The notes: a model not told the origin generated them from the letters alone. Counted from the stretch's first letter, positions 2,863-64,000 are shown. The stretch is 64,000 nucleotides of DNA from an uncultured Verrucomicrobiae bacterium (GCA_963702845.1 OY969763.1:1632001-1696000), one strand, 5' to 3'. Made by a program: numbers and translations.

Positions 2863-4947
2863 TCAGTGGGCGGCGTGTGCTTCTGCTTTCTTCTTCTTCA
2901 CATCTTCGATGACTTTCGTTTCCATGTCTCGCGGCATCTCTTCGTAATGATCGAAACTCTCCGTGTGAATTCCGCGGCCGCCCGTCAGTGAGCGCAAGTT
3001 GCTCGAGTATCTGTGCAACTCACGCGCCGGGACCTGCGCTTTGATGACTTGGAATTGTCCTTCGACTTCGATGCCGACGATTCGACCCCGGCGGCTCGAA
3101 ATGTCGCCCATGACTTTGCCCAGGCAATCTTCGGGGATGTGCACTTCGATATTATGAATCGGTTCGAGCAGGCAAGGCTTCGCTTTCAGGAACGCCTCTT
3201 TGAATGCAAAGTAACCGGCGATTTGGAACGCAATGTCCTTTGAATCGACCGGGTGCATTTTGCCGTCGTAGAAATCAATCTTTACATCCATGACGCGGTA
3301 GCCCGCGAGGATACCTTCTTTACACGCTTGATTAACGCCGTCTTCGACCGATGGGACGAACACGCGATCAACGTTTTGCCCGCTGAGCGATTCCGTAAAT
3401 TCCACACCGGTCTCACGCGGCAAAGGTTCAATTTTCATCCAGACTTCCGCGAATTGACCTGCACCACCGGTTTGCTTCTTGTGACGGTATTTGGAATCGC
3501 TGCTCGTGCGAATTGTTTCGCGGAATGGAATGCGCGGTTCGCCAAGCTCGACGTGTGTGTTGAAACGGCGGCGCAGCCGATCAACGATCACTTCGAGGTG
3601 CAACTCGCCTTGCGCAGAAATGATTGTCTGGTGTAGTTCGGAATCTACCCGGTGAACAAACGTCGGATCTTCTTCGTGCAACGCAGCTAGTCCGGCCGCG
3701 ACTTTGTCTTCTTCTCCTTTGACGGCGATATTCAGGGACGCGTGGATGGTCGGTTTCGGGTAAGTGACTTTCGCGAGTCTCACCGGACGTGAGGGGGAAC
3801 AGAGTGTATTCCCGGTGTGGGTGTCTTTAAGTTTTACAACAGCTCCGATCTCCCCGGGGCCAAGCTCAGGGATGGGTTTGCGATCGTGCCCGTTCAGGAC
3901 GTAAATCTGGCCGACGCGTTCGGTAATGCTGCGGTCGCTGTTATATAGCTCCGAGCCGCTCTTCACAGTGCCGGAGTAGACGCGGAAAAAGGAAAGTTCA
4001 CCGAAATGCGCTTCGGCCATTGTTTTGAAAACAAATGCCGATGTCTCTGGATCGGTAAGGCGAACTTCGGTGGGTTGTCCATTTGCGTCGAGGGCTGCGT
4101 AACGTTTTCGATCGACCGGAGAAGAACCATATTTGGCGATGAAGTCCATCAGTCGGGCGACGCCGACATTTGTTTCGGCGGAGGTGCAGAACAGCGGAAT
4201 GAAGTGCTGCTTCTGCACCGCTTCGTGTATGCCCGCCCGGAACTCCTCTTCCGACAAGCCGCCCTGGTCGAAATATTTCGACAACAACGTGTCATCGGAC
4301 TCGGCTATGTGCTCGATCATCTCGGTGTGGAGTTGTTTGACTTTGGCTTCCCAGAAACCGGTCGCCGGAACTTCTTTGTATTGGCCGCGACCACCTTCGT
4401 AGGTGCAGATATCATTGCGTAAAACGTCGAGGATCTGGTTGAAACCCGTTCCCGGGTTGATCGGGACGTTCATTGGAAATACGCCCGCGCCGTAACTTTT
4501 TCGGATTTCATCGAGAATTTCGTCAAAGTGCGTGTTCGGTTTATCAAATTCATTCATCACAAGGATTTTAGGGATGTTCAATTCAGTGGCGTAGTTCCAG
4601 ACGCGTTGCGTGCCCACGCCCACGCCATGCTGCGCGTTGACCACGACAACGGCGAAATCCGAAACGCGCAGAGCGCTGAAGGCTTCGCTGATGAAATCCA
4701 CGTAACCGGGAGTGTCGAGAATGTTGAACCGTTTGCCTTGCCATTCGGCGCGGAGCAATGATGCGTGAATAGAAATCTGCCGCTGCTGTTCGCTGGCGTG
4801 ATAGTCGGACACGGTCGTGCCGTGGGCAATTTTCCCCATTCGATTAATGGCACCGCTGCACGCGAGCATAGCTTCGCTCAACATGGTTTTGCCACTCGAG
4901 GCATGGCCGACAATGGAAAAATTACGGATGTCTGCTGGTGTTTGCAT
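2863..4947 (-). CDS. fusA: Elongation factor G-like protein (EF-G paralog)
   Basis: IRNFSIVGHASSGKT, DTPGY, GELHLE, KKQTGGAGQFA; not in an rpsL-rpsG-fusA-tuf context, so likely a paralog. Confidence 0.9.
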   Translation of the reverse strand: MQTPADIRNFSIVGHASSGKTMLSEAMLACSGAINRMGKIAHGTTVSDYHASEQQRQISIHASLLRAEWQGKRFNILDTPGYVDFISEAFSALRVSDFAVVVVNAQHGVGVGTQRVWNYATELNIPKILVMNEFDKPNTHFDEILDEIRKSYGAGVFPMNVPINPGTGFNQILDVLRNDICTYEGGRGQYKEVPATGFWEAKVKQLHTEMIEHIAESDDTLLSKYFDQGGLSEEEFRAGIHEAVQKQHFIPLFCTSAETNVGVARLMDFIAKYGSSPVDRKRYAALDANGQPTEVRLTDPETSAFVFKTMAEAHFGELSFFRVYSGTVKSGSELYNSDRSITERVGQIYVLNGHDRKPIPELGPGEIGAVVKLKDTHTGNTLCSPSRPVRLAKVTYPKPTIHASLNIAVKGEEDKVAAGLAALHEEDPTFVHRVDSELHQTIISAQGELHLEVIVDRLRRRFNTHVELGEPRIPFRETIRTSSDSKYRHKKQTGGAGQFAEVWMKIEPLPRETGVEFTESLSGQNVDRVFVPSVEDGVNQACKEGILAGYRVMDVKIDFYDGKMHPVDSKDIAFQIAGYFAFKEAFLKAKPCLLEPIHNIEVHIPEDCLGKVMGDISSRRGRIVGIEVEGQFQVIKAQVPARELHRYSSNLRSLTGGRGIHTESFDHYEEMPRDMETKVIEDVKKKKAEAHAAH

Positions 4948-52663: not shown

Positions 52664-53143
52664 TTAACCCAGCTTCTTCAAGGTTTCCTTCACCGCATTG
52701 AAATTCGGCAAATCTTTTGGCGTAGGCGTTTGTTCAGCGTATTGAACGACACCGTTCTTATCGATGACGAACGCGGCGCGAGCGGAAGTGTCGCCGACTC
52801 CGGCAAGCATCGGGAAGAGCACGTCATATTTTTTGGTGACTTCCTTATTCAGGTCGCTCGCGAGCTTGAGCGTAATTTTTTCCTTCTGCGCCCAGGCTTC
52901 CTGTGAAAATGGGGTATCAACGCTGATCGCGACGACATCTGCATTCAAATCGGCATACGCGCTCAAACCCGAGCTAATGTCGCACATTTCCTGAGTGCAA
53001 ACGCCGGTGAAAGCAGCGGGGAAAAACAACAGCACCGTGTTTTTCTTTCCGAAATTCTCGCTCAACTTCACATCCACCAGGCCGGTGGCAGTTTTGGATT
53101 TGAGAGTAAAATCGGGCGCTTGGGAGCCAACTTTAATAGGCAT
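52664..53143 (-). CDS. Peroxiredoxin (AhpC/TSA family)
   Basis: FFPAAFTGVCTQEMC, RAAFVID. Confidence 0.9.
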   Translation of the reverse strand: MPIKVGSQAPDFTLKSKTATGLVDVKLSENFGKKNTVLLFFPAAFTGVCTQEMCDISSGLSAYADLNADVVAISVDTPFSQEAWAQKEKITLKLASDLNKEVTKKYDVLFPMLAGVGDTSARAAFVIDKNGVVQYAEQTPTPKDLPNFNAVKETLKKLG

Positions 53144-53380
53144 AAAAATAATTAGTAAGTGTTAGAACAGTGCGCGTTGTTATATGGACAGCTTCGACTT
53201 GTGTCAACCGTAGGAAGCGGCACATCCGGTAAAGTATCACTATGATTCAGTGTTTAGGTGATAGGGACAGGCGCGTGCGGATGCTGTATACCCGTCAGTG
53301 AGAATCTTGAACGCATTCCAGCGCTGAAGATCTAAAGAAGAGCTCGAACCAAGAATTCAGGAACCCGCCTTCACTCGGAA

Positions 53381-53640
53381 AACGTCACGGCAACAAACAT
53401 CGTGCCTCTAACGCGTCAGCAATTATTAAACGACGGTTCGGTTCCTGATTAATTTTCTGTCAGTGGCCAACCTGTACGTATTACGTCCAATACTCCAGCG
53501 ACTTGACGACCTGGATCACCTCGACCATTGCGCTCAACGGCAACGGGACGTAAATGCAATGGATCGACATCGGTCCTTACACCACCGAATCCAAGCCCAC
53601 ACTGTCCCAAACCGCTCCTGCCGAGTCAGTCTCCCCATAG
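53381..53640 (+). pseudogene. Decayed C-terminal fragment of a secreted-protein gene
   Basis: Joining frames gives LLNDGS/FLINFLSVAN/TYYVQYSSDLTTW...GNGT*MQWIDIGPYTTESKP, with frameshifts and an internal stop. Confidence 0.55.
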
Positions 53641-53694
53641 GGCGCTGAAGGGTCGGGCATTCATGCTGTTGGTTTCAAAACACTTCGGCACTGC

Positions 53695-53723
53695 TTGACG
53701 CAGCCCCTCCGGTCGGCGATACT
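53695..53723 (+). promoter_or_regulatory. Putative sigma70 promoter of ssrA
   Basis: TTGACG-17 bp-GATACT just upstream of the tmRNA 5' end. Confidence 0.55.
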
Positions 53724-53737
53724 TTCTGTGCTTCCTT

Positions 53738-54089
53738 GGGGGCGTACTGGTTTCGACCTGAAAGTTACGCCAGAGGCGGCATGCCGAGGATGGTACGTTG
53801 GCCTCGTTAATCATCGAACCAAAAAATAGCTAACGAACAATTAGCACTCGCGGCCTAAATGTGCTGCGACGTTCGCCCTTGGACACCTGCTACGAGGGAC
53901 GAACGCCATAGCAGGTTAGGTGGAACACGGAGTCTGCGCGTGGTTCATCGAAGTAATTCCATGCGGGCTAAGCAGTCGGAATCGCGTTCGATCGTTATCC
54001 GGCAGTCTACAATATCTTTCGAACTAAGCATGTAGTCGCGGCTGGTTGATCAGTCAGGGACGCGGGTTCAACTCCCGCCGCCTCCACCA
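53738..54089 (+). ncRNA. ssrA: tmRNA
   Basis: 5' GGGGGCGTACTGGTTTCGAC, 3' T-arm GGGTTCAACTCCC and acceptor GCCTCCACCA; tag frame (A)NEQLALAA* at 53829-53858. Confidence 0.96.
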
Positions 54090-54152
54090 TATTTAACAGG
54101 GGTTTGGTGGATTTGTCTTGAGTCCTAACGGTTTTCCTAACAGAATGCCGTT

Positions 54153-55529
54153 ATGACAGCCGAGACGCGTACTCCAACTCCGCAAGTGTCAGCGCAAACC
54201 GATGCTGCGCCCTCTTTTCCGCTTCTGATTCAGACCGGCTCCGTTGTGGTGAAGATTTATAAGGTCACCAATAAGGGGCGGGATTCTTACACGATTTCTT
54301 ACATCACCCACGGCAAGCGGAAGCTCAAAATGTTTGCTGATTTGGAGAAGGCTATCGCCGCAGCGGAAGGCGTTGGCGACGCAATGGGTCGCGGCGAATT
54401 GGAGGTGCTCAATCTCCGCAGCAAGGAGCTGCTGAATTACCGGCTGGCGATGGATGCGCTCAAGCCGACCGGCGTTTCTCTTGAAGTTGCGGCGACGCAA
54501 TTCGCCCAGGCATTTGCAAAGCTGAACGGCAAAGCGACGCTGCTGGAGGCCGCTGAGTTTTATGTGAAGCGGAACCCGAACCAATCTCCAAAGTTGGTTT
54601 CGAAAGTGATAACGGATTTGCTGGAGGCCAAAGAAGCTGACGGAATGAGCGACGTTTATACCAAAGACCTGCGCAGCCGTTTGAAACGCGTTGGCAACTA
54701 TTTCAAGATGCCGATCGGGATGCTCACGGCGGCTGAGATTGAAAAGTTTTTGCGCGGACTGAAAACCGAGGGTGAATCGCCAAAGCCACTCACGGGCCGT
54801 TCACGAAACAATTACCGCCGCGCGATCGCGACGCTGCTCTATTTTGCTGAGAGTCGCGGGGACATCGTTAAGGGCACTGTTGATGTGGAGTCTATCGCAG
54901 TCGCGAAGCAGAATGACGGTGACATTGAGATTTTTACAGCGGATGAGCTCACGCGCATCTTTGCTACGGCTAGGCCGGTGCTGATCCCGTTCCTCGCCAT
55001 TGGCGCGTTTGCCGGACTACGCAGTGCGGAGATTGAGCGGCTGGATTGGTCCGAGGTTCGCATCGACGACGGGTTTATCGAGGTGAAGGCGAGCAAGGCG
55101 AAAACTGCGAGCCGACGTTTGGTGCCGATTTCCGAAAATTTGAAGTTGTGGCTTACGGATCACAAGAAGCCAAATGGCGCGGTCGTTCCATTTGCAAATA
55201 TGTCGAAACAACTTCTCTGGCTGGCGGAGGACGTGCACAAGGCCTGGCAAACGGAAAAGCCGGCGGGCGAGTTCAAGTGGAAGCATAATGCCCTACGGCA
55301 TTCGTTTATCAGCTACCGTGTGGCAACGGTGCAGAACGTGGCGCAGGTGGCGCTGGAAGCTGGTAACTCGCCAAAGATGGTGTTCTCGAACTACCGCGAG
55401 ATTGTCCGCCCCATAGATGCCGAGCGGTGGTTTGCGATCACGCCGGAAAGCGTCAGCGGCTTCAAAGTGAAAGTGGAACGTGAGCGAGCGGCGAAGATTG
55501 TGGCGCATCCGGTGGCGATGGCAGCGTAA
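54153..55529 (+). CDS. Tyrosine recombinase/integrase
   Basis: AFAGLRSAEI (R), KAKT (K), HNALRHSF, GNS, SNYRE (Y). Confidence 0.93.
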   Translation: MTAETRTPTPQVSAQTDAAPSFPLLIQTGSVVVKIYKVTNKGRDSYTISYITHGKRKLKMFADLEKAIAAAEGVGDAMGRGELEVLNLRSKELLNYRLAMDALKPTGVSLEVAATQFAQAFAKLNGKATLLEAAEFYVKRNPNQSPKLVSKVITDLLEAKEADGMSDVYTKDLRSRLKRVGNYFKMPIGMLTAAEIEKFLRGLKTEGESPKPLTGRSRNNYRRAIATLLYFAESRGDIVKGTVDVESIAVAKQNDGDIEIFTADELTRIFATARPVLIPFLAIGAFAGLRSAEIERLDWSEVRIDDGFIEVKASKAKTASRRLVPISENLKLWLTDHKKPNGAVVPFANMSKQLLWLAEDVHKAWQTEKPAGEFKWKHNALRHSFISYRVATVQNVAQVALEAGNSPKMVFSNYREIVRPIDAERWFAITPESVSGFKVKVERERAAKIVAHPVAMAA

Positions 55530-55624
55530 AGGGTGCGGAGGTGTGTTTACTGACGGCCGCTGACACGTGCGCCTTGTAGTCGGTGCTACGCTTCGACTTG
55601 AAACCCGAGGGGCAGCGCGGCAGG

Positions 55625-55677
55625 TGCGCTGCCGGCGCTGAAGGCTGGGTGCACGAAAAGGTAATACCCTAGCTGCG
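55625..55677 (+). repeat. 53-bp island repeat, copy 1
   Basis: tgcgctgccggcgctgaaggctgggtgcacgaaaaggtaataccctagctgcg. Confidence 0.9.
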
Positions 55678-55724
55678 CGTTTTTTCACGGCCGCTGTATT
55701 CGCGCTGGACGCATTTAAACCGGG

Positions 55725-55865
55725 TTAGCCGAATGAAATGGGCATGCCCATGCGCGCGGCGGCATAGGCGGCTAAGACTGCGAGGCCAAGCAGGAGAAAG
55801 AGGCCGATTAAGCCAATGATAAACGCCCATGTTTCGGTCCAAAGGCTGAAGTCGTCGGAGTTCAT
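55725..55865 (-). CDS. 46-aa single-TM hydrophobic peptide (not in ORF track)
   Basis: MNSDDFSLWTETWAFIIGLIGLFLLLGLAVLAAYAAARMGMPISFG; AAGGAGG Shine-Dalgarno just upstream. Confidence 0.7.
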   Translation of the reverse strand: MNSDDFSLWTETWAFIIGLIGLFLLLGLAVLAAYAAARMGMPISFG

Positions 55866-55958
55866 ACTACCTCCTTACTGGTACAATAAGGCAGAGAGGC
55901 GCCAATTCAAAATAAACGGCGGCATAAATGGTATCAATCGCAAGGACGCCAATGTCAT

Positions 55959-56011
55959 TGCGCTGCCGGCGCTGGAGGCTAGAGGCACGAAAAGGTAAAA
56001 CTCTAGGTGTT
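55959..56011 (+). repeat. 53-bp island repeat, copy 2
   Basis: tgcgctgccggcgctggaggctagaggcacgaaaaggtaaaactctaggtgtt. Confidence 0.88.
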
Positions 56012-56024
56012 GCCTTTCGGCTGT

Positions 56025-56285
56025 TCACATAGCAAAGGTTTGTCTAGAAATGCCGAAAGGCGCACTCGCGTGCGCCTTTCGTGTTAAAGGTTGAGGAGTT
56101 AGGTTTAAGCAGCCCAAGCCAGAATCATGAGAGGCTTTTTGAGCAGCACGAATGCGCTCTTTCCGTTCATTTTCAATGGCTTGTAGGAAGGCTTCTTTAT
56201 CCTTTAGGAATCTTTGGAACGATCCTGCTTCCTGTTCACAGAACGCGTCCATAGTGATGCGATTCATTGTTTTCTCGTTTTTCAT
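56025..56285 (-). CDS. Small hypothetical protein downstream of the zeta-like gene
   Basis: 86 aa, starts 2 bp after the upstream stop. Confidence 0.55.
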   Translation of the reverse strand: MKNEKTMNRITMDAFCEQEAGSFQRFLKDKEAFLQAIENERKERIRAAQKASHDSGLGCLNLTPQPLTRKAHASAPFGISRQTFAM

Positions 56286-56287
56286 AA

Positions 56288-57257
56288 TTATGCCTTTCTG
56301 GGCATAAATTGTGCCGAATTAAATATCTCTGCATTCAGCACCTCAAGTATATTCCCACTCTTTTTATTTGCAACTAATTCGATGTCGTTCGGAAGTCCCA
56401 TATTAGCAAACACTAAAACGGTGTCAAAGTAGTCAAAATACCCTCTGAGATGCTCAATGAAACCACTATGTGACTCAGGAAGCGCCTTAAAATGCGGGAA
56501 TCGGCGTGACTGCTTGGCACGTTCCATGGCTTGCCGGATAGCTTTATCCAACGGTGTCAGTATAGCGACCATCGTGAGTTCATAGCCGTGTCTCTTTGCC
56601 AGGTCGATGCGCTGCATAGTCTCGCCGTGGCTGGACATCGACGAATCCAAGATGAATGATTTTTCCGCCTCGATCAGGTCAGACACGACCTCTCTGGTAA
56701 GCTCGACGCACTCTTTCTGAACGGTCCAACTGGCACGACCGTCGGCGACCGCTTTAATTAAGCTGAATTCCGGGATCCAGCTGTTTAAAGATATCGGCGC
56801 CCACCATATTCTTTTTTTCGAGCGGTAGCTTTTCATTCTTTGCAAGGTAGTTGACTGCAGTTGTTTTTCCACTCCCATAGCCGCCGCCAGTGAACACGAG
56901 TTGTGGCTTGCCTGGGAGTTTTATTGCCGGGTTGCTTGCGATGCCCTTAATTGTTTTGCGAAAGCTGTCGCGAGTAATGGATGTTTGCCCAGGAATCAGG
57001 CCAGCTTCAATCAAGTTGAATAACTGTGAATCGAATAGGTGACTATAGGAACATAAGTCTACCGTCGGCTTGTAGCGAGTTTCCGTGAGGATCGGATCTT
57101 CGGGCGAGATGATTTCTGGACGCGAGATTTTGCCTGGTTCGTATTTTGTATCCCACCACCAATCCCAAAATTCGTACGTTTGATCAATATTGTCGACTAA
57201 TGTTGCAAAGTCGAATTTCTCACCATCTTTTAATTTCGATAAAATTGGCAGATTCAT
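56288..57257 (-). pseudogene. Zeta-toxin-like P-loop kinase split by a 1-nt insertion near 56777-56778
   Basis: LVFTGGGYGSGKTT and GADIFKQL in one frame continue as IPEF...FILDSSMS...AMERA in the next; the join gives about 322 aa. Confidence 0.8.
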
Positions 57258-57426
57258 CCCGTTAGTTGGTTGACCGATTAGCGGGCACCTTGCAGCGTCG
57301 GGTGACAGTTTTCAAGCCGTAATTACCGCGTTCACTGACGATGCTCCGGCGGCGCTGCCTCTAATTGTTTTCCGTTGGACTTGCGGCTGAAGCAGTTGCA
57401 GTATCGGATTTGGCTCCCAAACAACC

Positions 57427-58134
57427 ATGGATATTTTGGTCGACTTTGACAACATCGATAATGCAATGAGATCGAAGGGACTGCAGATGGTTTGCACCCG
57501 GATGGTTCATGCGATTGCTAATAAAAAAGCTACGATGCCCGCCATGCTACGGTTTCGACTATATGGTGGTTGGTTTGAAAATGAGTCGCTTACCCGGCGC
57601 GCCCAAAACTTGAGTTCGGAGATTCAGCGTGACTTTCCAAGTACAATTCGGTGGAGCGGGGGAACCAGAACGGGAACGTGCGTTGCGCAGGTCGAAATGG
57701 CCTACGCCTTGGAGATTGAACCCGCAAGGAAGTTAACTCATACGTTTCGCGTGCGACCATTCGATGCGAAGATTCGCTGTCGGCTGAATTTAATATCGAA
57801 ATGCACACAATCGCCCTGTCCGACTGCCGCGATTGCAGCGTTTTTCAATGACAAGAAGTGCATTACCCAACGCTGCTACATGACCCCGGGCGACTTCCTG
57901 GAAAAGGAAGATCAAAAACTGGCTGATACTATGCTGACGGCGGATTTAATTTATCTGGCCACCCACGGAAAAAGTGATTTGGCCGTCGTTTCTTCAGACG
58001 ATGACCTTTGGCCTGGCATCCAGACTGCGCTGTTATCTGGTGCGAGGGTAATGCACTTACACACGCACAAGGAGCGCCAAACGCGACAATCATACTCCAA
58101 CGGTCTGCTGCAATATAAGGAGACTGCCCTCTAA
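57427..58134 (+). CDS. NYN/LabA (PIN-like) domain nuclease with Cys-rich insertion
   Basis: ILVDFDN, QKLADTML..D, VVSSDDDLWP acidic motifs; CTQSPC and CITQRC. Confidence 0.8.
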   Translation: MDILVDFDNIDNAMRSKGLQMVCTRMVHAIANKKATMPAMLRFRLYGGWFENESLTRRAQNLSSEIQRDFPSTIRWSGGTRTGTCVAQVEMAYALEIEPARKLTHTFRVRPFDAKIRCRLNLISKCTQSPCPTAAIAAFFNDKKCITQRCYMTPGDFLEKEDQKLADTMLTADLIYLATHGKSDLAVVSSDDDLWPGIQTALLSGARVMHLHTHKERQTRQSYSNGLLQYKETAL

Positions 58135-58138
58135 CCAT

Positions 58139-60412
58139 ATGGACAACACCACATTTAAACGAGTGCTGACGAGTTTTGCTGACACCCCGGGAAGCGTCGA
58201 TTTTTCGAAAGGCAAACTGGTATGCGAAATTCAAGACAAGATGATTGAAGCAACGCTTCAGTCTCGTGACGGAGAGCTTTGGGTTAATGAGCATGGGGAA
58301 GAGATGGCGGCGCATAAGTGGATTTTGCAACGTGTCGCACGTTTACCGATTCTGGCCGAGCGAATTTCTTCCGCATTTGAAGAGCCTGAAAATTTTATAA
58401 CGCCGAAAGCTGATTCCATGAGCAATTTGGATGAGCTTAGTGCCGGCAAATTCGAGCAATACGGGGATGCGACGACCCTGACGTTGGAACTTCTGGATCG
58501 TCGTCCTGGAGGATGTTCGAGTGTTGTGTATTTAACATCGGATGCAGGCGAAGGTAAAACGACGCTGATGCGTCATTTGGCCAGGCTACAGGCGGAGAGG
58601 TTTAAGGCCAAGCAGAGTGATTGGCTGCTAGTACCTATCGAGCTCGCCGGCAAGCCACTGCTGAGCTTTGATGATCTAGTGATCGGTTTTCTGAGCAATC
58701 GGCTCCGGTTCCCGCTGTTTTATTTCGATGCGTTCATGGAAATGGTGAAACTGGGGGTAATTGTTCCGGCCTTTGACGGGTTCGAAGAAATGTGGGTGCA
58801 AACGCCGCAAGGCGATGCTCTCTCCGCGATTGGAAGTCTGATGGGGACGATGGATTCAGCCGGAACAGTTTTGATTGCCGCCCGAAAAGCTTATTTCGAG
58901 TATCAAGACGTCAGGGCACAAGCCAGGTTGTTTGACTCAATCGGCAATAGTGCTGTGGTATTTTCCCGAGTCGCCATCCAGCGCTGGAACGAACCGCAGT
59001 TCCTACAATATTGTGAGAAACGCGGGATTAGTAATGGAAGAGAGATATTTAGCCGTGTAGCAGAGCGGCTAAAACCAGACCATCCCTTGCTCACGCGTGC
59101 TGTATTGATCAAGAGATTGCTGGACGTAGCGCAGGAATCCGGAAGTCTAGCCCAACTGCTGCAGGAAATTGGTAACTCGCCAGTAAATTACTTTGCGGTC
59201 TTTGTAAAAGCGATCGTCGAACGCGAGGCGCGGGAAAAATGGATAAATACGAAGCGAGACCCCCATGTCCCGCTATTAACAGTAGATGAGCATTTCGAGT
59301 TACTCGCTACGGTCGCACAGGAGATGTGGACGCTCTCGACGGACAACCTGAAAGGGGATGTCTTGGATTTGCTAACTGATCTGTTCTGCGAGGCTCGAAA
59401 GCTAGACGCGGACGTCACCTTCCAGATCAGAGAGCGAACGAAACAGCACGCCCTGATAGTGGGAGCCCCTGGCGCACGAAAGACGTTTTCGTTCGACCAC
59501 GAGGAGTTCAAAAACTTTTTCCTCGGAGAATCAGTAGGACAGATCTGCAGGAAGGCGGACCCTACCAAGAAGTTGGAACTTTTGGGCATATTGCGCAAAG
59601 CTACGCTGCCGAGCCAGGCGGTTGATGCGGCGCTCGCCACAATCCGAAAAAGTAAGAGCTTCAATAGCACTAAGGTCACCGCATTCCTGCAAGAGGTGGC
59701 GGGGTTGGATGGTCCAACGTCCTTCACCCGGGAGAATGTAGCGCGTTTGTTATTGAGGGTTCTGCATAGAAGCGCTTCGGATGGGATCACGTTCGTCGAC
59801 ATGTCTTTTGGAGTCGATGCGTTGCGCCACCTCGAACTCGATAACGTCACGTTCAATCAATGTTTATTCGCTCCAACTTCATTAGAAGATTCAATATTGA
59901 AGAACTGTAAATTTTCCAAGTGCCACTTCGACCAACTGATATTGCATTCATCCATGAAAATATTGAAGAGTGTGCTTGACTCCGACGAAGGAGAAATCGG
60001 AAGCATTTTACCAAGTGGTGCCCAAGATCCGGTGTACGATCCTTCGCGGTTTGGCCCACTGTTACAGAGGGCTGGCTTTGAAATTCCTAAAGTCGCCGGT
60101 CCAGTGACGACAAAGGTTGACGAGGATCAGTCCATGAAGATGTTCCGGCGGCTAATTCGACAATTCCAATACGGATCGCGTATTACCGAACCCGCCCTAG
60201 TCAAGCGACTGGGGCCCTTGGGAGGTTGTTTTGTGAAAGAAGTTGTGCCCCAGCTAGTGAAGGCCGGCGTTCTCGCTTTGGAATGGAGCACGGCTATAAA
60301 GCAGGAGCAGTATCGTCTTAACATTTCGATGGAGCGTATCTACGAAGCACTAAGAATCAGCTGGCCGTCAGTTGATCATTTAGTTGCCGAGATTACGCGC
60401 CCAACGGATTAG
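58139..60412 (+). CDS. NACHT/STAND-like P-loop NTPase with pentapeptide-like C-terminal repeats
   Basis: Walker A SDAGEGKTT, Walker B VPAFDGFEE, FSFDHEEFKNFFLG, LDNVTFNQCLF...LKNCKFSKCHF. Confidence 0.8.
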   Translation: MDNTTFKRVLTSFADTPGSVDFSKGKLVCEIQDKMIEATLQSRDGELWVNEHGEEMAAHKWILQRVARLPILAERISSAFEEPENFITPKADSMSNLDELSAGKFEQYGDATTLTLELLDRRPGGCSSVVYLTSDAGEGKTTLMRHLARLQAERFKAKQSDWLLVPIELAGKPLLSFDDLVIGFLSNRLRFPLFYFDAFMEMVKLGVIVPAFDGFEEMWVQTPQGDALSAIGSLMGTMDSAGTVLIAARKAYFEYQDVRAQARLFDSIGNSAVVFSRVAIQRWNEPQFLQYCEKRGISNGREIFSRVAERLKPDHPLLTRAVLIKRLLDVAQESGSLAQLLQEIGNSPVNYFAVFVKAIVEREAREKWINTKRDPHVPLLTVDEHFELLATVAQEMWTLSTDNLKGDVLDLLTDLFCEARKLDADVTFQIRERTKQHALIVGAPGARKTFSFDHEEFKNFFLGESVGQICRKADPTKKLELLGILRKATLPSQAVDAALATIRKSKSFNSTKVTAFLQEVAGLDGPTSFTRENVARLLLRVLHRSASDGITFVDMSFGVDALRHLELDNVTFNQCLFAPTSLEDSILKNCKFSKCHFDQLILHSSMKILKSVLDSDEGEIGSILPSGAQDPVYDPSRFGPLLQRAGFEIPKVAGPVTTKVDEDQSMKMFRRLIRQFQYGSRITEPALVKRLGPLGGCFVKEVVPQLVKAGVLALEWSTAIKQEQYRLNISMERIYEALRISWPSVDHLVAEITRPTD

Positions 60413-60430
60413 CCCGGGAAAGATTGCAGT

Positions 60431-60483
60431 TGCGCTGCCGGCGCTGGAGGCCAGGTGCACGAAAAGGTAATACCCTAGCTGCG
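60431..60483 (+). repeat. 53-bp island repeat, copy 3
   Basis: tgcgctgccggcgctggaggccaggtgcacgaaaaggtaataccctagctgcg. Confidence 0.9.
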
Positions 60484-60606
60484 GTCCCCTGCGGTTGGCG
60501 TTCAGAGTTGCTTGACTGCGCTGTTACACTTCCGAGCTGGGTGGGTGCGGGCAGATGAACGCTTGAAACGACTCACCAGTGCAGAAGTATCAGCTGAACA
60601 GTAAAT

Positions 60607-62166
60607 ATGGAATTGACCCACATCCTCACATTCTTGTGGGACATAATCAACAACTGGGCTGGCTACGCAACCGGCGGATTGATCATGGCCCTTGTTTTTC
60701 TTGGGCAAACCTTGAGCAAAAAGTGGCAACCGTCGAGAGGGTTATTAAAGTTTCTATGCATCACGTTTTTGGCGCTCGCGATTTTCAAATCGTGGGACGA
60801 TCAGTATACATCTACCCTCACAATTCAAAAGTTGCTGAACGATAAATCACCCAAGTTAGACGGATTCATCCACAGGACTCTCATCGCCGATGAGCCAGGC
60901 ACGACAAACTCACTGATCCTAGCGGAAGTTAGCATATGCAACGCCGGGGCAATTCCAAGCATTGCAGAAGAATTCAGAGTGACTGCCTTGTTGCCACAAA
61001 CCAAATCCACGAACGCCCAAGATATTAATTTTTCGGATAAATATATCCTGAATTTTATTCACAAAGAAAAACCGTGGTTGCTCGATTTGAAAAGACCGCA
61101 ATTGATTGCTGAAAAAACGATCAAAGCGATACCCGTAGGTGAATCTCGACGAGGCTGGGTAGCCTTCAGGCTTCTTGGGGTGCCTACAAGCCGTCTCCAG
61201 CAGACCAATGTGGTGGTGTCATTTCTGGACATCGCCGGCACACGAATCCACGTGACGAATGGATTTTGGAAAGGAAAGCCGGGTAATCCGCAACCGCTCG
61301 ACGACCTAACGGCGACTATCCCTGAAGCGGAAAACATTTTCTATCTGGTTGAACCACCGGCGCGAACCAATTGGCTTCCGCCTGAGTTGCCAGCGGGCTG
61401 TAGCAACGTAGTAGTATTCCTTGGTGCTCAAGTGCTCGAACTTCCCGTTAAAATGGCGGAGATCTCGAGTGTCGGGAAAAAGTTTTCAATTTCAGAACTA
61501 CCAGATTTCCTATCGAAAGATTTGGATAAATCCCCGGACTATTCACCCCGCCGTCGGACGGTGTGGTTTCGGTCAAGTCCTCCTAAGACTTCCATTGGCG
61601 GAAAATCGATCGACTATCCTATTCAGCCGGCGGTCATCAGTAATCGCCTCTATGTTGAAGTAGAAATTCCTTTCTCCAACGAACGACGCGAGCTTGTTAT
61701 GAGTGATGATTTCGGCTCTCAACTTCCAATCCCGCAGAATTGGGACATTAATTTTAGTACGAACTACGATGCGTATGGAAATGGAATCTATGCGTATGAG
61801 GTTGTGAACGAATTAACCAATCCGGTACTGCAAGTGGTTTATACCGCACCTAACGAAGTTCACGTTAACGGAATTTTTCAAGTTGATACAAACAGCATAC
61901 TGGCCGCATTTGGTGAACCTCCAGTACTTGGCACATTTTCGTACACAAATCTTTCCACAAATGAAGGCTTAATGAAAGCGGCGCTGCAGATAGAGACTTT
62001 TCACGAAAGTTTGGTCATTCGCTCAAACGAATCTATCGCATCATTTGGGCAACGATTTACAAACGAGTTTTTTAGACCCATTTTCAAGTATCAAAGACCC
62101 ATATTTAAGTACCCATCGAATAGAAATCTCGGTGTCTTTGCAAATCCTGCGGGAACCAAACCTTAG
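60607..62166 (+). CDS. Hypothetical protein with two N-terminal TM segments
   Basis: 519-aa ORF, hydrophobic N-terminus, no recognisable motif. Confidence 0.7.
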   Translation: MELTHILTFLWDIINNWAGYATGGLIMALVFLGQTLSKKWQPSRGLLKFLCITFLALAIFKSWDDQYTSTLTIQKLLNDKSPKLDGFIHRTLIADEPGTTNSLILAEVSICNAGAIPSIAEEFRVTALLPQTKSTNAQDINFSDKYILNFIHKEKPWLLDLKRPQLIAEKTIKAIPVGESRRGWVAFRLLGVPTSRLQQTNVVVSFLDIAGTRIHVTNGFWKGKPGNPQPLDDLTATIPEAENIFYLVEPPARTNWLPPELPAGCSNVVVFLGAQVLELPVKMAEISSVGKKFSISELPDFLSKDLDKSPDYSPRRRTVWFRSSPPKTSIGGKSIDYPIQPAVISNRLYVEVEIPFSNERRELVMSDDFGSQLPIPQNWDINFSTNYDAYGNGIYAYEVVNELTNPVLQVVYTAPNEVHVNGIFQVDTNSILAAFGEPPVLGTFSYTNLSTNEGLMKAALQIETFHESLVIRSNESIASFGQRFTNEFFRPIFKYQRPIFKYPSNRNLGVFANPAGTKP

Positions 62167-62308
62167 CCCCTGTATTCTCGTTGAAAAACCGCTATGAACC
62201 GTCGGCGGCGCCGGCCCCGGCCCCTGGAGCGACCCGGACACCAAGATGGTGCCCGTATGGCACGCTTTTTATTTACAACGGGCTAAGCGGAGACTAGTTT
62301 TCGTAACC

Positions 62309-62551
62309 ATGAAAAATATATCACGGTGGGGAGGCTACTTTGCTTCGATCTTCGCTATCATATACTTTATCTCGGTTATTCTGTTTCGCGTACAGGTTAA
62401 CACCGTGCCTAGTTCGTTGTTAGCCTATACCAGATTTTGCTCCTTGGTGCTTGGAGCATTCTCCGGACTTGTTTGCATAGTATCAGCCATTTTATCAGCC
62501 ATTTTGCCGCCTGCCCTTCGTGCCGATCAAAAAGGCTTCGCCAATCAATAA
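62309..62551 (+). CDS. Small 2-TM membrane protein
   Basis: MKNISRWGGYFASIFAIIYFISVILF...; GGAG upstream. Confidence 0.5.
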   Translation: MKNISRWGGYFASIFAIIYFISVILFRVQVNTVPSSLLAYTRFCSLVLGAFSGLVCIVSAILSAILPPALRADQKGFANQ

Positions 62552-62672
62552 TCATCTCACGCCGAGCATCGCATCAATCCAACTGAACGAGGCGAAAGAT
62601 CCGGAATATGGGTGCGCTGCTAGCGCTATCAGAAATTCGAAACCCTCGATGCGCTTTTATTTGTCTTCGCAT

Positions 62673-63395
62673 TCAAATGGTCACTCCGGAGCTAACGGTT
62701 ATGGGTGAACCGTCCGCCACAAATGCTGAGTCCGGAGTTGCGCTTAATGGACTTGAGAACTGCGCGCCGTAAATCGACGCGATGTCGCAGCGCAGAACTG
62801 CGTTTCGTACCTGCCAAACGTACCAAGGATCGTGCGCCACGTGGTATTCCTTGCACGTGCCATTTGGTTGGGTGGTGTAACCCCAGTGGTGCTTAGTGAT
62901 GAATTCTTCTTTGGAACTTTCAATCACCGGCTGCAGGGCGCCAACGGTCGTGGCGGAGATTGTGTTCCAGTTACCTCGATAACACCACGCGTACTCTACG
63001 GACCCGCCGCTGGGCAACTTGTCGTTCACCGTCTCAATGGAGTGGGTCATTGGCATCACGGTGTAGGGTTCGTTGTAGTAGGTTCGTGCGACGGTCGCGA
63101 TTAGACGGCGAGGTACGATTTCTTTGATAAAAACGACGCCACGTCGCCAGCCGTCCGCAGCCCGGTGTCGCACATAGAAACGAAGATTCACCTCTTCGAA
63201 ATTGGAGTGCAGCGGCACGGAAACACCAAACACTTTGGTGCGCAGGAACAGAAAGCCAACAACGCTGAGGTAATTCTCGCCGTTCCATGTATCGAGTTCG
63301 ACGCCAGGTGGAATGTTGGGGCGGAGTAGTTCTGGATCGACAGCATAGTTGAGCATCAATAAATACTGCCAGTTGGCTGTGAGGAAGGTGCGCAT
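62673..63395 (-). CDS. YqjF/DUF2071 family protein
   Basis: FLTANW..L.MLNY, FEEVNLRFYV, RGVVFIKEIVP. Confidence 0.85.
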   Translation of the reverse strand: MRTFLTANWQYLLMLNYAVDPELLRPNIPPGVELDTWNGENYLSVVGFLFLRTKVFGVSVPLHSNFEEVNLRFYVRHRAADGWRRGVVFIKEIVPRRLIATVARTYYNEPYTVMPMTHSIETVNDKLPSGGSVEYAWCYRGNWNTISATTVGALQPVIESSKEEFITKHHWGYTTQPNGTCKEYHVAHDPWYVWQVRNAVLRCDIASIYGAQFSSPLSATPDSAFVADGSPITVSSGVTI

Positions 63396-63402
63396 CGAAC
63401 AT

Positions 63403-63816
63403 TCAAGATTTCTGCAACCCGCATTTACCTGAGATGCAATAACGGTTGTTTGCGAATGTGCGGTACCCTACATCGAATAGTTGCCTGAACACCGGGGTGA
63501 CGGAAAAAATATAAACTGGAAAGGCCCACCAGATCCGCCTCGTCACGTAACGATACACGTCCGCGCCCTGGATTTGCCGGCCGTCGCGGAGCAGCAAGCG
63601 TAAGTCTTTCAGAAGGTCTTCGCTGGACACGCTCAATTTTTCTTGAACCCAAGGGGCTTGCAGAGGCGCGATGTCGAAGCCTCGTTTGTGAAGCGTCATT
63701 CGCCAGAACGGAACCCAACGCCGACAAAACCCGCACGAAGCGTCGTAAAGAACCCATCCGTGGATTGTGCAGTCGTCAAACATCGAATCGACCGCAGTTG
63801 TTTGATGTTCGTGCAT
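63403..63816 (-). CDS. DCC1-like thiol-disulfide oxidoreductase (DUF393); start uncertain
   Basis: LYDASCGFC (DxxCxxC), YRTFANNRY. Confidence 0.85.
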   Translation of the reverse strand: MHEHQTTAVDSMFDDCTIHGWVLYDASCGFCRRWVPFWRMTLHKRGFDIAPLQAPWVQEKLSVSSEDLLKDLRLLLRDGRQIQGADVYRYVTRRIWWAFPVYIFSVTPVFRQLFDVGYRTFANNRYCISGKCGLQKS

Positions 63817-64000
63817 CTGCTTGTTCTCTTCCATATACCCCAGCGGTTTTGTGAGCACCATCCGCGAATGACCGCATGCGGGTGCGTTTTTTATCTGTGT
63901 GGTTATCATGGGATAAGCAATTGTATTGGAAAAGTGGAACGGGAAAAGTAACGTCGGTAAACCAAATGTACGTCAAACTATCGCTCCCAATTTTGATTTG

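Follow-up and report, generated by a model that had tools for sequence, protein, structure and literature searches.

Here we describe a family of direct repeats of ~59 nt, hereafter R, three full copies of which follow a transfer-messenger RNA (tmRNA) gene and a tyrosine integrase gene in a 64,000-nt stretch of DNA from an uncultured Verrucomicrobiae bacterium (GCA_963702845.1, OY969763.1:1632001-1696000). R is a sequence-conserved double-stranded element marking the joints of cargo modules in the variable part, near the recombinase gene, of integrated mobile elements of one Verrucomicrobiales genus. Our tentative proposal for its role is that R may be a portable recombination junction, where cargo modules join or exchange. 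A cargo module, commonly a gene or operon followed at its 3' end by R, would be joined, swapped between elements, duplicated or lost at R, and the agent might be a site-specific recombinase or general homologous recombination acting on ~59 bp of near-identity. The integrase next to the tmRNA gene would not act on R; its sites would be the 24-bp tmRNA-derived repeats at the ends of its element. Throughout, positions called 'window' refer to the whole 64,000-nt stretch and those called 'genome' to the 6.03-Mb genome.

Distribution and conservation of R

The three full copies in the window, R1, R2 and R3, with edges taken from the model match, score at E 1e-14 to 1e-19 genome-wide with a model built from the copies, and thus are not chance matches. 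They lie where the original prediction, made from this stretch alone, had placed three direct repeats (window 55625, 55959 and 60431). As it had also noted, R1 and R3 are identical at all but 3 of the 53 positions then compared (93% identity over 58 nt in our repeat search), and the start-to-start spacings are 334 nt (R1-R2) and 4472 nt (R2-R3). Genome-wide, there are 10 full copies in four clusters and a few decayed or partial ones, the orientation of R being uniform inside every cluster:

Genome 0.094-0.112 Mb: cluster A, four full copies, all on the + strand
Genome 1.688-1.692 Mb: the window cluster, three full copies, all on the + strand
Genome 3.330 Mb: cluster C, one full copy on the - strand
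Genome 4.320-4.321 Mb: cluster D, two full copies, both on the - strand
Decayed or partial copies: R4 of the window; genome 96336, 4816299 and 3373803; possibly genome 415103

Every one of the four clusters has, no more than ~9 kb away, either a tyrosine recombinase gene (the genome has 10) or the sole integrase remnant of the genome, and by our own arithmetic roughly 4% of the genome is that near to such a gene or remnant. This association supports the view of R as a junction of cargo modules and agrees with the original prediction in setting R apart from scattered repeats of the repetitive extragenic palindromic (REP) kind.

A model of R built on primary sequence was run over 61 genomes: this one, its 2 congeners, 28 more from the family and a further 30 from the order. 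Matches were confined to this genome and to one metagenome-assembled genome (MAG) of the same genus, G002, which is 67% complete and gave 9 matches with E <= 1e-4, rising to 12 with E <= 0.01. The second congener (73% complete) had no R match in this search, and the rest of the 61 genomes yielded chance-level matches only (E 0.003-0.01). An exact-pattern scan of one genome for each of 185,579 species returned G002 alone, titled Verrucomicrobiales bacterium, and a pattern scan of metagenomes returned one contig with one R copy, L060, from a close relative with core genes 86% identical to those of this genome. Viral contigs held 0 matches for two R patterns, and plasmid and phage collections partial matches at chance level only (E 0.2-0.6). 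Across the three species, R copies are ~85-93% alike, compared with 72-84% for conserved genes of the MAG and 86% for those of the metagenome relative. That R is more conserved between species than genes, in invariant blocks alternating with a few fixed variable columns, also supports its interpretation as a recombination junction.

Paralogous elements with different cargo

The window array belongs to an integrated element, and a second, related element carries its own array:

Genome 1686067-1741474 (window 54067 onward, past the window end): tmRNA element, ~55 kb, with 24-nt end repeats
Genome 4277393-4324298: tRNA-Asp element, ~47 kb, with a 29-nt copy of the tRNA 3' end at 4277393

The 3'-terminal 24 nt of the tmRNA recur as an exact copy at genome 1741451-1741474, outside the window and 55 kb downstream; the tmRNA integrase is therefore part of an integrated ~55-kb element. 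Since the probable sites of this integrase are the 24-nt tmRNA-end repeats at the element ends, R is internal to the element, and we infer that the substrate of the integrase is the tmRNA 3' end and not R. Within the window, the features are as follows (open reading frame, ORF; amino acids, aa):

53738..54089, + strand: tmRNA gene (ARAGORN; Rfam RF00023, 156.6 bits)
About 54067-54090: left attachment-site copy of the ~55-kb element, formed by the last ~24 nt of the tmRNA
54153..55529, + strand: tyrosine integrase, 458 aa, of the ordinary tRNA/tmRNA-island type (PF00589, E 2e-5)
55620..55677, + strand: repeat copy R1 (model score 67.3 bits)
55725..55865, - strand: 46-aa hydrophobic ORF, the sole ORF of the R1-R2 unit, no Pfam match
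55937-55909: promoter-like site of the R1-R2 unit
55954..56012, + strand: repeat copy R2 (62.3 bits)
56025..56285, - strand: 86-aa ORF, no family match, its stop 12 nt from the right end of R2
56288..57257, - strand: zeta-toxin-like kinase gene in two overlapping frames, 56288-56878 and 56754-57257 (PF06414)
57427..58134, + strand: 235-aa protein with an NYN-nuclease-like lead only
58139..60412, + strand: 757-aa P-loop NTPase with a pentapeptide-repeat region, a possible defence protein
60425..60485, + strand: repeat copy R3, the best copy (72.3 bits)
60607..62551, + strand: 519-aa and 101-aa ORFs of the third module, function not assigned
~62612..62654, + strand: decayed repeat copy R4, from alignment to the intact copy of the tRNA-Asp element (nhmmer E 36 only)
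62673..63395, - strand: DUF2071 gene (PF09844)

The tmRNA gene and the integrase thus lie just upstream of the repeats, as proposed. The integrase is followed by R1, the 46-aa ORF, R2, a module comprising the 86-aa ORF, the split zeta-like kinase, the 235-aa gene and the 757-aa NTPase, then R3, the 519-aa and 101-aa ORFs, the decayed R4 and DUF2071. R4, a fourth copy beyond the three of the original prediction, retains both repeat ends, has a 12-nt deletion and substitutions in its middle, and adjoins the DUF2071 3' end.

According to BLASTn, the tmRNA and tRNA-Asp elements are collinear paralogues. Their integrases share 73% nucleotide and 44% amino-acid identity, long blocks are 75-92% identical, and a WYL-WCX regulator is 96.6% identical between them. 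The shared backbone has genes for a PD-(D/E)XK nuclease and a PIF1-like helicase as well as for a DnaT-like protein and a primase-polymerase with DUF5906; Pfam recognised no capsid or conjugation genes in either element. In the tRNA-Asp element, the integrase is followed by 219-aa and 316-aa ORFs, R, a 341-aa ORF, a further R and DUF2071. Hence, the cargo between the integrase and the R+DUF2071 module differs in the two elements and is partitioned by R in both, whereas the R+DUF2071 module is common to them, with 89% identity over 824 nt (BLASTn). This shared block starts at the left edge of R and stops abruptly ~70 nt upstream of the DUF2071 start, at window 63465. The combination of different R-divided cargo with a common R+DUF2071 module in paralogous elements supports exchange of modules at R.

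Two further clustered repeat families were observed in this genome, S (~110+55 nt, 49 BLAST hits) and T (~50-80 nt, 32 hits), with sites at genome 1700010-1732161, 4284651-4319146, 176986-183531, 2185493-2198818 and elsewhere. Many of their copies lie inside the tmRNA and tRNA-Asp elements amid arrayed small ORFs, including an Imm50-like one. Between S repeats there is also an IS110 copy, which the two elements share at 99.5% identity.

R at other loci and in relatives

Elsewhere, R occurs with other recombinases and other cargo. The tyrosine integrase of cluster A is an unrelated one; further genes there are IS110, a NERD nuclease, an SLFN-STAND NTPase and, between two R copies, RmuC. The genome has two RmuC genes, at 110051-111514 (flanked by R) and 5233568-5234449; the latter looks ordinary, and the former, only 31% identical to the RmuC copies of relatives, is for that reason regarded as an acquired extra copy. 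In cluster C, the last 55 codons of an integrase gene (70% identical) are followed by R, a HEAT gene and a truncated WCX gene; this cluster is a wreck of the same kind of element. At 4.816 Mb, a left-half R lies 8 nt past the stop codon of a third tyrosine integrase gene (486 aa, of a different clade; genome 4814830-4816340) and is followed by a second partial left end; no lone right half that would point to a split R was found near this partial copy.

In G002, contig L051 has three full and two decayed R copies within 4.5 kb, with one to three ORFs between neighbours; two single-gene units encode a SRAP peptidase and a collagen-like CBM96 protein, and the array adjoins genes for a DUF1828 protein and a restriction-modification methylase. 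Here and in the window, co-oriented arrays divide accessory cargo, as the original prediction had held for the window, and this, too, supports a role of R in joining modules. We considered whether the 334-bp R1-R2 unit of the window was homologous to a 336-bp unit of L051, and rejected this, finding no homology beyond the repeats. On another G002 contig, L052, two R copies bracket a five-gene Znu-type transporter operon. Only 1 of the 13 genes that flank R in G002 has a match of >=60% in this genome, compared with 71-82% for clear orthologues on the same contigs; together with the R-flanked RmuC, this marks the cargo as accessory, which again supports our proposal. A comparison of synteny between this genome and G002 yielded no clean site with and without R, gene order being too broken (~77% identity, short contigs). 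In the metagenome relative, the island on L060 (1-12034) abuts the position of tRNA-Pro. R lies there between a block of type III restriction-modification, HNH and bPH_2 genes and two ParB/RepB-like genes, and a large serine recombinase gene follows the ParB/RepB-like pair, 1.8 kb from R.

The association of R with the integrase clade of the window is not general. Of 301 genomes sampled from the order, 130 have a homologue of the window integrase at E <= 1e-40. We compared 20 of their loci, each with itself (the best matches on longer contigs, from other genera, 44-67% identical, up to 20 kb each), and found no R-like array at any. Two of the 20 have the expected pair of attachment-type repeats, 24-27 nt long and 8-10 kb apart. 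The idea that R is tied to this integrase clade is not supported by these loci, nor by the presence of R beside other integrases and in the serine recombinase island. Another locus, L125 in genome G268, has one pair of 69-nt direct repeats (3115-3183 and 3484-3552, 98.5% identical), which flank one small lysine-rich ORF ~1.1 kb downstream of the homologous integrase. The layout recalls that of R1, the 46-aa ORF and R2; the sequence is unrelated.

R is conserved as primary sequence

The original prediction had proposed two dyads in each repeat, one of them with a compensatory change, and had considered a structured RNA repeated once per module. We aligned 21 rows representing 20 distinct sites, as two overlapping loci contributed one site twice. 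Their consensus gave a weak fold (-7.9 kcal/mol, with a covariation term of about 0), predicted structures differ from copy to copy, and ten folds of seven copies, three of them folded on both strands, gave z-scores of -1.06 to +0.85 against shuffles. Over both dyads, 80.4% of cells are paired, versus 79.9% in shuffles, and the covariation score of 0.066 is on a par with the shuffled mean (0.064), the observed score being reached or surpassed in 172 of 500 shuffles. In the ctagag/ctctag helix, just 67.5% of cells are paired, and the supposed compensatory pair is GC in 7, AU in 2, GU in 1 and unpaired in 10; the claim of a compensated dyad thus did not hold. The GCGCT/GGCGC dyad shows no two-sided change and is for this reason uninformative either way. 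Searched against Rfam 15 up to E 10, window 53000-64000 gave a match for the tmRNA only and none on its R copies. Given no dyad, fold or covariation signal, nothing points to an attC-like hairpin or to a structured RNA, and we rejected R as a structured RNA or single-stranded DNA hairpin.

Other signals were sought as well. R1, R2, R3 and R4 contain no sigma-70-like promoter or intrinsic terminator, and R was accordingly rejected as either. The attC R'/R'' box motifs occur in 0 of the 21 rows. Xer/dif-type modules have a 28-bp XerC/XerD site at their borders; a search with a dif-type consensus found no convincing dif in the genome with which to compare R, and by eye R has no XerD-arm-like half. 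Against the tmRNA and 48 tRNA genes with 40-nt flanks, the best among the matches listed was 19 nt long and lay in a 5' flank; R as a partial tRNA or tmRNA was rejected, the similarity being no better than chance among the matches listed. R is taken to be conserved in its primary sequence because of the lack of fold, covariation, Rfam, promoter, terminator and attC-box signals, and this fits recognition as double-stranded DNA.

Just past R2 and outside R, a strong GC-rich hairpin lies at window 56040-56085, where a sub-threshold match to the small RNA family STnc40 was also seen (25.8 bits versus 45). This hairpin is probably a terminator, not part of R.

Position of R relative to genes

Gene positions were counted with ORFs of >=70 aa, a limit below which the 46-aa gene between R1 and R2 falls. 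The predicted placement of the window copies just past gene 3' ends was recovered, R1, R2 and R3 being 90, 12 and 12 nt, respectively, from the nearest stop codon. Over the sites counted, the right end of R faces a gene 3' end in 13 of 19 cases, with the stop codon at most 13 nt away in 8 and, in two of those 8, inside R itself. On the left side, 9 genes are directed to R and 11 away from it. The orientation of right ends toward gene 3' ends supports a module with R at its end. Furthermore, R is dispensable for the neighbouring gene, given that decayed copies exist (R4 and genome 96336).

Weighing the interpretations of R

Several points weigh against R being a recombination junction. Our observations include no recombination product, empty site or circle, and recombination at R is what we infer from its context. 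The bias of its right end toward gene 3' ends is modest. There is no R at the far boundary of the shared DUF2071 block, and R is therefore not required for every exchange. No integrase or recombinase is present among 39 ORFs on 6 of the 7 R-bearing G002 contigs (4-10 kb long), and some G002 copies flank ordinary-looking operons, for Znu transport or with sigma/anti-sigma genes. Recurrent mutation might account for the mosaic pattern of variable columns seen among copies. Comparative power is low, because R is present in only three genomes, and this distribution would be explained almost as well if R were regulatory or spread selfishly.

Selfish spread is, in our estimation, an unlikely account, yet the one that fares best among the alternatives. 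R would then be an inert dispersed repeat, either a miniature non-autonomous element or intergenic DNA passively copied within weakly constrained acquired DNA. Its low copy number and restriction to one genus, the decayed copies with internal deletions, the copies beside unrelated recombinase types (and in G002 beside none seen) and the presence of other clustered repeat families in the genome are all consistent with this. However, on inspection by eye, the aligned flanks showed neither target-site duplications nor terminal inverted repeats, and R has no hairpin and a uniform orientation per cluster. Nor does a candidate mobilising enzyme adjoin R, and its conservation between species is above that of coding DNA.

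Conservation in blocks of primary sequence is typical of protein recognition, and R might also be a cis-acting protein-binding site (operator, insulator or factor-dependent terminator, for instance) that travels with cargo modules. Its location in same-strand spacers at about 6 and in convergent spacers at about 5 of the 19 sites flanked on both sides by ORFs of >=70 aa, with the next gene start roughly 50-135 nt past R where this can be judged, would suit such a function. We nevertheless consider it a doubtful one, slightly more so than selfish spread: the copies of the window hold neither promoter nor intrinsic terminator, the orientation of R to its neighbours is not uniform, the decayed R4 stands beside a well-kept DUF2071 gene, and no regulator recurs, WYL being present in three clusters and missing from cluster A, the MAG contigs and L060.

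It seems improbable, though conceivable, that R is the crossover site of a non-integron cassette system serving elements with tyrosine or serine recombinases that draw on a shared cassette pool of the genus. A recombinase of the host genus or of the elements would in that case recognise the 59-bp asymmetric double-stranded site, and gene-plus-R modules, many of them defence-like, would be inserted, excised and shuffled in the cargo bays of unrelated elements.

Least probable, and largely refuted, is the integron-like system of the original prediction, in which the tmRNA integrase would recombine folded attC-like repeats, or in which R would be a structured RNA present once per module. The array beside an integrase, the compact units and the co-oriented sites favour it. 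GC skew puts the origin close to 4.74 Mb and the terminus close to 2.20 Mb, and by it 10 of 10 full copies are on the leading-strand sense, as has been reported for chromosomal integrons; four clusters would agree in this way by chance 1 time in 8, and the sense is opposite in the possible divergent copy at 415 kb. Nevertheless, the folding, covariation, Rfam and attC-box results all go against it, the integrase has its own tmRNA-derived sites 55 kb apart, the 20 homologous-integrase loci lack arrays, and the array lies 3' of the integrase, not at its 5' end. Moreover, the window integrase scores 19.1 bits with the integron integrase model TIGR02249, for which the cut-off is 265, and no gene of the genome scores higher than 85.9 bits, the value for an Xer-like gene.

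Cargo genes of the window

The original prediction had described two defence-like gene pairs between R2 and R3. PADLOC had no match for any of the 7 window cargo ORFs scanned, and that description is supported only in part. The zeta-like gene is split, with PF06414 profile positions 54-170 in one ORF and 13-56 in the other, and is either a pseudogene or the product of a sequencing error in a homopolymer run. For the 235-aa protein, which has no Pfam, PADLOC or NCBIfam match, an ESM Atlas score of 0.95 points to clusters in which ~30% of members carry NYN. The 757-aa protein has weak AAA_16, Pentapeptide_4 and nSTAND matches, below cut-off, and a partial HalA match (E 9.5e-6) far under the cut-off, with none in PADLOC; a homologue in genome G016 was read as two adjacent pieces. 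Together, the 235-aa and 757-aa genes are a candidate two-gene defence system without a PADLOC match. A relationship of this pair to a pair of 250-aa and 718-aa genes in cluster A was rejected, no homology having been found.

Implications

Should R indeed serve as a junction at which cargo is exchanged, the mobile islands of a poorly studied phylum would shuffle accessory and defence-like genes via a short, sequence-defined site, independent of integron machinery and common to elements that integrate with different recombinases. R would then offer a handle for cassette pools outside Proteobacteria and a simple 59-bp site for bench tests. If it is instead merely selfish or regulatory, R would still be a well-documented lineage-specific repeat and a caution against reading integron-like systems from direct repeats beside an integrase.

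Comparison with known systems

Several classes of bacterial repeats share features with R. REP elements, bacterial interspersed mosaic elements (BIMEs) and miniature inverted-repeat transposable elements (MITEs) occur in many scattered copies, which are either palindromic units or bear terminal inverted repeats with target-site duplication. R resembles them in being extragenic, lineage-specific and often situated past gene 3' ends, but it has no fold and is clustered near recombinase genes, with 10 full copies in four clusters. In Neisseria, dRS3 and intergenic mosaic elements and minimal mobile elements are short, lineage-specific intergenic repeats flanking exchangeable modules, whose exchange the repeats are thought to promote. 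The dRS3 units are short inverted repeats that number in the hundreds and are the target of a known recombinase; R is likewise intergenic and lineage-specific, but asymmetric, present in ~10 copies and confined to islands. The accretion described for cis-mobilizable elements (CIMEs) and integrative and conjugative elements (ICEs) is a tandem accretion of integrative elements that target tRNA or tmRNA genes. An integrase beside a tRNA or tmRNA gene and bounds of direct repeats, by which tRNA/tmRNA islands are recognised, characterise the 55-kb element, not R. Among the papers listed on Verrucomicrobia integrons and attC sites, titles and abstracts mention no such repeat, and no wider literature search was made.

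Tycheposons (bioRxiv 10.1101/2020.12.28.424599) provide one close parallel. Here, too, a tyrosine integrase lies beside a tmRNA or tRNA gene together with a primase-polymerase and helicase module and cargo, and the islands consist of modules parted by direct repeats, with decayed integrase remnants as in cluster C. The separating repeat of tycheposons is a partial tRNA, the attachment site of the integrase itself (bioRxiv 10.1101/2020.12.28.424599). Unlike that repeat, R is not tRNA- or tmRNA-like above chance among the matches listed, and lies inside the element.

Chromosomal integron arrays of IntI and attC (compare the IntegronFinder paper, PMC4889954), for example the VCR repeats of Vibrio, provide the other parallel. 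R is likewise co-oriented, near-identical between copies and about 60 nt long; it separates small accessory or defence-like units beside a tyrosine recombinase gene, units that can be as short as ~330 bp, and often directly follows a stop codon. Unlike in integrons, R has no hairpin, dyad conservation or R'/R'' boxes, and the genome has no IntI, the integrase clade of integrons distinguished by an extra domain. An integron array begins at attI, by the 5' end of intI, whereas the R array lies 3' of the integrase with many genes directed toward it, and R units may hold several genes on both strands with promoter-like sites of their own. R lacks the defining features of integrons, of attachment-site arrays and of REP and MITE repeats; in function, it would appear to be most like the uniform repeats of chromosomal integrons and like the repeat-separated modules of tRNA/tmRNA islands such as tycheposons.

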